Positions 1-3,000 of a DNA stretch of 5,893 nt are shown piece by piece. The position numbers were made by a program. Each line of letters opens with the position of its first letter. The first letter of the stretch is position 1. This DNA is from a virus (lineage: Duplodnaviria; Heunggongvirae; Uroviricota; Caudoviricetes), in the IMG/VR virus record IMGVR_UViG_2778261277_000021, positions 1 to 5,893 of that record; one strand, 5' to 3'.

Positions 1-3000
1 CGGTGTCCGCGCAAGGGGGCCACGGCTGCCAGCGGGTATATGCGCTGGGAAGGTGTCAGCGATGGCCTGAAGGTGACTGCCGGGAGCGTGATTCAGCGCG
101 ATGACCTGGTTCAGTACACGGCAACTGCCGATGCAACCAGCTCCGGTGGTGTCCTGCGTGTGCCGATCACTTGCTCAACTACTGGCGCGGCCGGTAACGC
201 TGACGACGGTACGGCATTAATCCTGGTCACGCCGGTGAATGGTCTGCCGTCTTCCGGTGTGGCTGATACCCTGACAGGCGGATTTGATACTGAAGAGCTG
301 GAAACGTGGCGCGCCCGCGTCATTGAGCGGTATTACTGGACGCCTCAGGGCGGGGCTGACGGGGACTATGTCGTCTGGGCTAAAGAAGTGCCCGGCATTA
401 CCCGCGCATGGACATACCGTCACTGGATGGGAACGGGAACTGTCGGTGTGATGATTGCCAGCAGTGACCTGATTAATCCCATTCCGGAAGAATCAACGGA
501 AACGGCGGCAAGACAACATATCGAGCCACTGGCCCCGGTGGCAGGCTCTGATTTGTATGTGTTCAGGCCGGTGGCGCACAAAGTGGATTTTCATATCCGC
601 GTGACGCCGGACACACCGGAAATACGGGCTGCCATCACCGCGGAGTTGCGTTCGTTCCTGCTGCGTGATGGTTATCCGCAGGGAGAACTGAAGGTATCGC
701 GTATCAGTGAGGCGATTTCCGGTGCGAACGGGGAATACAGCCATCAGTTGCTTGCCCCGGCAGACAATATCTCCATTGCAAAAAATGAACTGGCGGTACT
801 GGGGGCGATTTCATGGACGTGACAAACGATGATTACATCCGTCTGTTGTCGGCACTGTTGCCCCCCGGTCCGGCGTGGTCAGCCAGCGATCCGGCGATTG
901 CCGGTGCGGCACCGTCATTAACCCGCGTTCATCAGCGTGCGGATGCCCTGATACGGGAGCTGGATCCGCGCACCACCACTGAACTGATAAACCGCTGGGA
1001 GCGTCTGTGCGGTCTGCCGGATGAATGTATTCCCGCAGGGACACAGACCCTTCGCCAGCGTCAGCAACGGCTGGATGCGAAGGTTAACCTGGCGGGCGGC
1101 ATCAACGAGGATTTTTATCTTGCACAGCTTGCTGCCCTGGGCAGACCAGATGCCACCATCACGCGATACGACAAAAGCACGTTCACCTGCTCATCGGCCT
1201 GTACTGACGCTGTGAACGCGCCTGAATGGCGGTATTACTGGCAGATCAACATGCCAGCCGCCACCAACACCACCTGGATGACATGTGGCGATCCCTGTGA
1301 TTCCGCACTGCGTATCTGGGGGGACACCGTTGTCGAGTGCGTGCTTAACAAACTCTGCCCGTCGCATACCTACGTAATTTTTAAATATCCGGAGTAATCC
1401 ATGCATCGTATAGACACGAAAACCGCGCAGAAGGATAAGTTCGGCGCGGGTAAAAACGGTTTTACCCGTGGTAACCCCCAGACTGGCACGCCTGCCACCG
1501 ATCTGGATGATGACTACTTTGACATGTTGCAGGAGGAGCTTTGCAGCGTTGTAGAGGCATCCGGTGCCAGTCTCGAGAAGGCGCGGCACGACCAGCTGCT
1601 TACCGCGCTTCGTGCGCTGCTGTTAAGCCGCAAGAATCCGTTTGGTGATATCAAATCGGATGGCACTGTGCAAACGGCTCTCGAAAACCTTGGTTTAGGA
1701 GATATCAGTGCTACAGGTGTTGCGACAGGTAGTATGGGCGAAACCGGATATGCCATATTTCCGATGATGATTGGCGGTACGCGTAAGACGCTTATTATGC
1801 AATGGGGAGTAATGACATCTCTGAGATCAGGCGGCACTGTGGATATTAATCTGCCGATTGCTTTTCCTACTATGGTTATGCAGGCATATGCAACACATGA
1901 TAATGTGATACAAACCGCACGACCGACAGTATATGCAATTGCCCCAACAAGCCGAACCACTATCACTGCGACGGCGATGAGCTTACGTGCTGACTCAGTG
2001 GGTGCTGCAGTGACGCGCAGTAGTGACAGTGATTTGTGTTACGGTCGTTATCTTGCAATAGGGTACTGAAATGAATCTGAAATATTTTTCTCCATCAGAA
2101 AATGCGTTTTATGCCGGGGAGCTTAAGGAAAGCTATATTGCTGCAGACTCATGGCCTTCTGATGCCTTGGAGGTTGACGAAAGTCTTTATCTTGAGTTTA
2201 TCGATGAGCCGCCAGCAGGTAAGTATCGTGGAGTGGATGATGCAGGTATGCCCTGCTGGCTTGAAATTCCTCCACCCACCGCAGAGGAAATGGCATCGAA
2301 TGCAGAGAATATGAGACAGCAGCTCATTGATGAGGCAAATGTTTATATAAACAAACGTCAGTGGCCGGGAAAAGCAGCGATAGGCCGTTTAAAGGCGGAT
2401 GAACTGGAACGATATAACCTTTGGCTGGATTACCTGGATGCGCTGGAAGTAGTAGACACCTCCAGCGCGCCAAACATTAACTGGCCTGATCCTCCGGATG
2501 CGTAGGCCATACGGGTTTTGCTGTATCGACACGCATTAGCAAGACCCGATATTTCTTCCATTCGGCCAGAGCGACGGTTTCCTCATCCGTCGCGATACCA
2601 ACATCAACTGCATCCTGCCGCCAGGCTATCTCAGCGTCAGCAATAGCGCGTAAACTGCTGGGATAACAGCCCAATGGAACGCTTCTTCAGGAGTCTGAAG
2701 AACGAATGGATGCCGGTGGTGGGTTACGTAAGCTTCAGCGAGGCAGCTCACGCCATAACGGACTATATCGTTGGATATTACAGCGCACTAAGACCGCACG
2801 AATATAACGGTGGGTTACCCCCAAACGAATCGGAAAATCGATACTGGAAAAACTCTAACTCGGTGGCCAGTTTTTGTTGACCACTTCACACGTCGTATGC
2901 AAGAACGTGCTGCGGCTGGCTGGCGAACTTTCGATAGTGCGAGTATTGAATGATTTCCAGCCGTTACCGATTTTACGTGTTAATTAGTGAATAAACCACT

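Follow-up and report, generated by a model that had tools for sequence, protein, structure and literature searches.

A 237-bp, non-functional 3' remnant of IS911, single-ended and non-autonomous, was found between the tail-fibre genes and dinI of an E. coli prophage, where its truncated side is fused to an opposite-strand fragment of a second tail-fibre assembly gene (tfa'). This scar most probably arose when IS911 inserted just past the phage invertase gene and a single deletion, guided by microhomology, then followed. The window, i.e. the whole stretch of 5,893 nt that was analysed, comes from E. coli and spans the right end of a prophage that occupies dusA; this prophage combines lambda-like early and head genes with a Mu-like contractile tail. 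The features of the window were listed in Table 1, and no Rfam match was obtained for the whole window. The stf and tfa genes constitute an intact, expressed tail-fibre set.

Table 1. Features of the window around the IS911 stump, with positions, strands and the basis of each assignment
Feature	Position	Strand	Description and basis
Baseplate J	40-822	+	ORFs and Pfam
Mu gp48/YmfQ-like	813-1397	+	ORFs and Pfam
Tail fibre, stf	1401-2069	+	ORF; Pfam Gp53-like_C and Caudo_TAP for the stf/tfa set
Only remaining invertase crossover site	1678-1703	+	Core AAACCTTGGTTT at 1685-1696; constant/variable boundary of the tail-fibre gene
Tail-fibre assembly, tfa	2071-2505	+	ORF; Pfam Gp53-like_C and Caudo_TAP for the stf/tfa set
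tfa' fragment plus IS911 stump	2477-2888	both	
tfa' fragment	2477-2653	-	3' 177 nt (58 codons and stop) of an alternative tail-fibre assembly gene; N-terminal ~60-70% absent
Deletion junction patch	2646-2653	none	GCGCGTAA here vs GCGCGGAA in IS911; DNA and protein alignments
IS911 3' remnant	2652-2888	+	IS nt 1012-1248 of the 1248-bp reference copy; orfB end and right inverted repeat
C-terminal IS911 OrfB/OrfAB transposase coding fragment	2653-2880	+	Ends ASFC, stop 2878-2880; Pfam, NCBIfam
IS911 right terminal inverted repeat (IRR)	2853-2888	-	Outward reading TGAAGTGGTCAACAAAAACTGGCCACCGAGTTAGAG; alignment to both ends of the L001 copy
Surviving part of the invertase/dinI hairpin (IS911 insertion site)	2889-2919	-	Folding and alignment of relatives
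dinI-like gene	2984-3232	-	Pfam DinI, 1.1e-19
Tyrosine integrase	3294-4391	-	
dusA	4480-5517	+	
pspG	from 5650	+	

Identity and extent of the IS911 stump

The stump was aligned with a full-length IS911 reference copy, L001, which comprises 1248 bp between TGAAGTGG... and ...CCACTTCA and was annotated by PGAP with a programmed frameshift as a joined CDS. Homology to IS911 was detectable from 2646, and positions 2646-2888 matched IS nt 1006-1248 without gaps (241/243 identical, E = 6e-126), while other IS911 copies were 100% identical over exactly 2652-2888. When 2640-2895 was searched by megablast, matches were obtained in 4,002 of the 5,426 complete E. coli genomes, and the alignment of each IS copy found ran from 2646 (or 2652) to 2888. 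In these genomes the stump was at least 99% identical to copies labelled IS911, the label being that of the RefSeq/PGAP annotation, and 92-94% identical to ISEc52; the nucleotide identity to IS911 was that of the same IS at isoform level. The alignment to full-length L001 revealed no IS911 homology left of 2646, and neither a left inverted repeat nor any further part of IS911 elsewhere in the window.

The right inverted repeat, which we take to be 36 bp long as in IS911, was intact, and the stump terminates with ...TTGACCACTTCA at 2888, the last bases being CCACTTCA. Of the two ends of a 5'-TG...CA-3' element, only this right repeat was present, ending with ...TTCA. Of the 3-bp target-site duplication the right flank (CAC...) alone was present, the deletion having taken the left end together with the sequence beside it, so the insertion is not verifiable from both ends.

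The translation of the stump, read from 2647, matched Pfam rve_3 (6.4e-8) and rve_2, and these C-terminal pieces were all that was found of the DDE core (rve domain). The NCBIfam model transpos_IS3 was covered at profile positions 309-368 of 369, with 60 bits against a cut-off of 160. The CWDN motif was located at 2656-2667, and, from general knowledge of IS3-family DDE transposases, of the three catalytic residues the fragment presumably retains the region of the third (Glu) and neither Asp. The last ~75 codons of orfB were what remained of orfA and orfB with their -1 frameshift. With one end and no transposase, the stump is unable to move.

The initial annotation had described about 240 bp of an IS3-family element, running from the CWDN motif onward to a terminal repeat that ends at 2888 and fused at 2650 to an opposite-strand, truncated tfa'. 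Its family assignment was confirmed and narrowed to IS911 by the alignment and the NCBIfam IS3 model; the extent was as described, judging from the motif position and the alignment to L001; and the fusion was supported by the Caudo_TAP match and the homologue alignments given below. Its statement that the stump could not transpose by itself also held. The stump is thus real, but its true boundary lies between 2651/2652 and 2653/2654 rather than at 2650.

The two junctions of the stump

On the left, the tfa' fragment codes for the last 58 residues of a protein that matched Caudo_TAP (Pfam positions 76-131 of 131, E = 3.7e-16). When it was compared with four full-length homologues (116-143 aa), the conservation extended to the Leu codon at 2651-2653. 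Both pieces, tfa' and the transposase, are truncated pseudogenes in the PGAP annotation of the one matching genome. Across the junction the plus strand reads GCGCGTAA|ACTGCTGGG in the window versus GCGCGGAAACTGCTGGG in IS911, and 7 of the 8 bases of the junction octamer are common to both parents. In the whole IS, GCGCGTAA is matched at 7/8 or better only once, at nt 1006, which is the truncation point, and when random junctions of IS911 with proxy phage DNA were simulated, such a patch touched the joint in ~0.27% of them.

The T at 2651 and the minus-strand Leu codon at 2651-2653 belong to tfa'. A G-to-T polymorphism of IS911 at 2651 was considered and rejected: none of 2,692 IS911-like records carried T there, and a synthetic 81-mer of IS911 with T at this position had no perfect match among them, the best being 98.8% identical (one mismatch). 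Given T2651, the conserved Leu-Arg-Ala and the absence of T in the 2,692 records, the ancestral tfa' would have had GCGCGTAA; its parental sequence at the joint was reconstructed from homologues, of which the nearest are 80-86% identical near the junction. These alignments suggest that the left joint was formed by illegitimate recombination guided by an imperfect direct repeat, and that the crossover probably fell within the AA at 2652-2653 or immediately ahead of it. Since this joint is internal to the IS, it is not a transposase product.

On the right, the alignment of relatives without the IS to the window begins exactly at 2889. In CX12 and ECSD228, whose prophages occupy the same dusA site, the base before 2889 is the end of AACCGTAG, directly after the stop of a serine invertase (...YKKFPVGDK*); phage SKA5 has a different invertase allele, then ...AAGCCGCAGC|CACGTCG, and other IS-free relatives carry a different module ending with CCGCAG(C) left of 2889. 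SKA5 was 99.5% identical to the window over 2889-3298 and 97.9% over the full aligned stretch of 2889-4583. Measured on pinE-type relatives, the insertion point falls 8 nt past the stop of the invertase gene, in the hairpin that separates this gene from dinI. The sequences of the relatives are contiguous across the IS911 insertion site, and the right joint of the IS, a normal one for transposition, resembles a plain insertion.

On the dinI transcript strand, the hairpin of the relatives has a stem of 13-14 bp (e.g. AACCGUGGCACGUU...ACGUGCUACGGUU) followed by a U-rich tract. In the window half of it is present, the arm at 2905-2916 having lost its partner except CACGT at 2889-2893, and folding in comparison with the relatives showed that it does not form there; the dinI hairpin is broken. 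This argument is based on the folding of relatives and not on a terminator scan, and the scan for consensus terminators found none in 2400-3400. Upstream of the dinI-like gene, a sigma-70-like promoter was detected by the promoter scan, and a LexA-box-like sequence at 3246-3265 matched the search pattern perfectly. With the hairpin broken, dinI transcription induced by SOS may cross the stump and proceed antisense into the tail-fibre genes. A hybrid outward promoter using the -35-like TTGACC of the right repeat was also considered and discarded, as no usable -10 was recognised by eye at 16-18 nt and none was returned by the promoter scan.

The degenerate invertible cassette and the probable origin of the scar

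The tail-fibre cassette of the window is a degenerate Din-type invertible segment. The core of its crossover site, a site presumably extending over 26 bp like the hix, gix, cix and pix sites, had a single match, with no second core in the window, and the homology with the tail-fibre genes of other prophages switches at 1702. In an intact relative, the equivalent left site was accompanied by a second, inverted crossover site adjoining the invertase gene, and the left site was also seen in SKA5. The gene order in ECSD228 (dusA site) and phage SKA5 was stf-tfa-tfa'(-)-Sv'(-)-invertase(+)-dinI(-)-int, and ECSD228 contained both crossover sites, the second one between Sv' and the invertase gene. 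In the relatives nearest to the variable segment of the window (95% identity over 1674-2634), tfa' measured 426 bp, Sv' 354 bp and the recombinase gene 549 bp. In place of two alternative sets of Sv and tfa, the window contained one complete set (1401-2505) and the 58-codon tfa' fragment, with no Sv', and neither ORF prediction nor Pfam revealed a serine invertase ORF between tfa' and dinI. As one crossover site survives, the segment is locked and the stf/tfa orientation is the one expressed.

Based on this comparison, the ancestor would have carried a Gin/Cin/Pin-type cassette consisting of a crossover site, Sv, tfa, the inverted tfa' and Sv', a second crossover site and the invertase gene, followed by a hairpin common to the invertase and the convergent dinI, then int and dusA. 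IS911 would have entered the hairpin just after the invertase gene, with orfAB in the same direction as the invertase, and the predicted precursor joint of the invertase 3' end to the left IS911 end would read ...AACCGCAG(C)CAC|TGAAGTGGCACAC. A transposase-independent illegitimate recombination would then have fused tfa', at GCGCGTAA, with IS911, at GCGCGGAA (nt 1006-1013). It presumably removed IS911 nt 1 to ~1011 together with the phage DNA between the two points, which comprised the invertase gene, the second crossover site, Sv' and the 5' part of tfa'. The loss was estimated from three templates at ~1.2-1.6 kb of phage DNA and ~1.0 kb of IS (~2.2-2.6 kb), the phage part being measured on relatives with different Sv'/tfa' alleles. 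No full-length IS911 precursor at this site was present in the 5,426 complete E. coli genomes, and because no intermediate was found, it is by inference that we place the insertion before the deletion, count a single deletion and ascribe it to slippage or microhomology joining.

An IS insertion followed by a deletion between the IS and the invertible segment had also been proposed in the initial annotation. The endpoints were upheld, since ECSD228 and SKA5 carry tfa', Sv', a crossover site and the invertase between the junction points, and the order of events was supported, but the insertion is placed in the hairpin beyond the invertase and not in the invertible segment. The comparison with IS-free relatives that had been suggested there revealed that the deletion extended to the invertase gene and to the second crossover site as well.

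A history of several steps was weighed against this single deletion. IS911 might first have inserted elsewhere (e.g. in tfa' or Sv'), an adjacent deletion mediated by an IS end or an intramolecular transposition might have brought its right end to the dinI hairpin, and a second deletion might then have taken the 5' part of the IS along with some of tfa'; or this part and the phage DNA might have been lost separately. Such a course would accord with the absence of the left IS end and of the target duplication, by which the original insertion site is not provable from both sides, and no intermediate was found in complete E. coli genomes or in genome and metagenome contigs. We regard it as improbable, because at least two rare events are needed where one suffices, the right junction resembles a plain insertion into DNA that is contiguous in relatives, and the left junction, being internal to the IS, requires at least one non-transpositional deletion regardless. 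Two transpositional routes were rejected outright: a transposase-mediated adjacent deletion as the sole event would have left the IS whole, and one-ended or surrogate-end transposition of the stump conflicts with flanks that are contiguous in no relative, with 1.2-1.6 kb missing between them. The deletion could also have been linked to transposition, taking place during the copy-out replication of IS911 or with the help of IEE instead of by ordinary replication slippage. In an overview of the subject (bioRxiv 10.1101/2023.06.07.543989), IEE is the IS-excision enhancer, a PrimPol-type enzyme with microhomology end-joining activity, which stimulates the excision of IS3-family elements and accompanying larger deletions with joints at 2-4-bp microhomologies, some of them intruding into the IS. 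The junction here has microhomology, as the IEE joints described there do. However, the IEE events described there remove about one IS length or begin at an IS end, whereas neither endpoint here is at an IS end, the first lying ~1.0 kb into the IS and the second 1.2-1.6 kb beyond it, and a transposition-linked deletion is decidedly improbable.

A deletion made by the phage invertase itself, through recombination of quasi crossover sites in tfa' and IS911, is very improbable. Din-family invertases are known to use quasi-sites, as work on P1 Cin reportedly showed, and the GTAAAC at the junction resembles half of a gix-type site; nevertheless, no match to the crossover core AAACCNNGGTTT was obtained in the junction region when 3 mismatches were tolerated, the join is several bases away from the would-be central dinucleotide, and the genuine left crossover site is untouched. 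The chance that the element was mis-delimited, being either complete or no IS at all, is practically negligible: contiguous IS sequence left of 2650, which would point to a complete element, was absent, the DNA left of 2646 is minus-strand tfa' without IS911 homology, and the E value of the IS match leaves the same impression. Insertion next to the invertase gene and one deletion thus remains the preferred course of events.

Distribution of the scar and comparison with known systems

Among the 5,426 complete E. coli genomes, the complete scar configuration was found in one, that of E. coli PigCaeca_2 (NZ_CP038857), and the next-best coverage of 2300-3300 was 41%. An exact-match scan with the 30-nt tfa'/IS911 junction CAGCAATAGCGCGTAAACTGCTGGGATAAC gave no hit in genome contigs or metagenome contigs. 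PigCaeca_2 is the complete genome nearest to the window, and in its PGAP annotation the two pieces are pseudogenes, one of tail-fibre assembly and one labelled 'integrase core domain', both 'missing N-terminus'; the remainder of the prophage had no annotated pseudogenes. The window does not derive from PigCaeca_2, from which it differs at 66 positions, none of which is within the 1.5-kb scar block (1491-2991). The divergence was 2.75% on the left (baseplate genes), 0.5% in dinI-int and 1.3% in the chromosomal dusA-pspG part. At the average rate ~17 differences were expected in the central block (Poisson chance of none ~5e-8), so the common origin of this block is more recent than that of its surroundings. 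Either recombination or a horizontal spread of the scarred prophage could account for this. That the scarred prophage is still an active phage of permanently fixed tail-fibre type, which moved between E. coli lineages after the deletion, possibly with SOS-induced read-through of dinI in addition, is conceivable but rather unlikely.

Four other places in the PigCaeca_2 genome match the 3' end of IS911. Given these and its 237 bp at 99-100% identity, the stump may reasonably be viewed as a possible recombination substrate for the IS911 copies common in E. coli, as judged from sequence.

The scar is a case of routine, well-understood prophage decay, and IS stumps at prophage deletion scars are commonplace. 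It accounts for the orphan crossover site and the two pseudogenes (tail-fibre assembly and transposase) of this prophage, and it means that the tail-fibre (host-range) switch is locked. In addition, a natural deletion joint is seen here in clean form, the join falling on an imperfect microhomology of 8 bp and one endpoint lying within an IS. It does not challenge current understanding and matters little beyond annotation.

IS911 belongs to the IS3 group of the IS3 family, was first described in Shigella dysenteriae and transposes by copy-out/paste-in. The stump shares with it the last 237-243 nt at 99-100% identity, including the right inverted repeat and the C-terminus of OrfB, but lacks the left inverted repeat, orfA, the frameshift site and ~80% of orfB with both catalytic aspartates. 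Like the Din-family segments (Mu G/Gin, P1 C/Cin and e14 P/Pin), the window has a constant 5' part of stf, the core AAACCTTGGTTT at the boundary, Sv and tfa, and a convergent tfa', and relatives at the same dusA site possess the full cassette with a serine invertase. Unlike these segments, the window lacks the invertase, the second crossover site, Sv' and most of tfa', and its cassette is hence unable to invert.

Prophages and islands that integrate in dusA carry a dusA-associated integrase family (Farrugia et al. 2015, PMC4482086). Here too the tyrosine integrase is immediately upstream of dusA, with nothing unusual, and the phage supplies a replacement 5' end of dusA, the homology with SKA5 reaching window position 4583 inside this gene. 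As for the left joint, the study of lacI by Albertini and co-workers in 1982 is reported to have found spontaneous E. coli deletions between short direct repeats, a class attributed to replication slippage or to illegitimate recombination at microhomologies. Compared with such deletions, the event here was deduced from comparison, the repeat is imperfect and the parental tfa' was reconstructed; the endpoints likewise fall in a short direct repeat (8 bp, 7/8 identical), of which one hybrid copy was kept.

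Divergence around the scar and the tfa' allele

To compare the window with E. coli PigCaeca_2 (L002), the one further genome in which the scar was found, the block 1491-2991 was set against positions 1-1490 and 2992-5893. A total of 66 differing sites were detected, none of which lay within the 1.5 kb of this block surrounding the scar, while divergence reached 2.75% in the baseplate genes, 0.5% from dinI to int and 1.3% from dusA to pspG. This mosaic pattern of identity suggested that, once the deletion had occurred, the scarred segment or the prophage was transferred between lineages or recombined between them.

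The convergent 3' ends of tfa and tfa' overlapped by 29 bp (2477-2505), and the overlap was also present in intact relatives such as L005 (6804-6832). The Sv-tfa-tfa' block shared 95% identity with Mu-like prophages at other chromosomal sites (L005/L006) until about 2634, past which tfa' diverged sharply (2634-2653). Given this divergence, the missing 5' part of tfa' was probably a different, recombinant allele.

The regions flanking dinI

The hairpin downstream of dinI also served as the joining point of differing prophage modules. The module joined there was an invertase, either pinE-type or of another allele, a restriction-modification cargo, or a piece of tfa, and the sequences of the prophages diverged immediately beyond CCGCAG(C). 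The insertion point of IS911 was within a few bases of this boundary.

Upstream of dinI, two LexA-box-like sequences overlapped the predicted dinI promoter. Based on these sequence features and the broken hairpin 3' of dinI, SOS-induced transcripts from dinI might read through into the IS stump and the tfa' fragment, and then run antisense to tfa and stf.

Positions of the dinI regulatory features and of the hairpin boundary
Feature	Locus	Position	Strand	Description
LexA-box-like sequence	window	3246-3265		TACTGTGTTTGTATACAGTA; perfect match to search pattern
Second LexA-box-like sequence	window	3274-3293		2 mismatches to search pattern
Predicted dinI promoter	window		minus	TTGACA, 18-nt spacer, AAAAAT
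Hairpin/module boundary	window	2889-2919
Hairpin/module boundary	L013 (ECSD228)	7395-7430
Hairpin/module boundary	L015	about 6990-7030
Hairpin/module boundary	L004	about 5990-6030

Cassette decay in CX12

E. coli CX12 (NZ_CP073719, 11401-13959) carries a sister prophage, likewise integrated at dusA, in which the same cassette had decayed by a different route. The stf gene was truncated, tfa and tfa' were partial, a ClpP-like gene was inserted on the minus strand, and the invertase gene lacked its N-terminus and carried an internal stop. The decay in CX12 is independent of that in the window, and prophages of this group appear to have lost inversion repeatedly.

The dusA integration end

The homology between the window and the free phage SKA5 extended beyond the integrase gene up to 4583, so that positions 4480-4583 of the dusA reading frame were included, and a short "tRNA-dihydrouridine" ORF adjoined int in SKA5. 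Both observations indicated that the prophage brings a substitute 5' end for dusA, an arrangement already described for dusA-associated integrases (PMC4482086).
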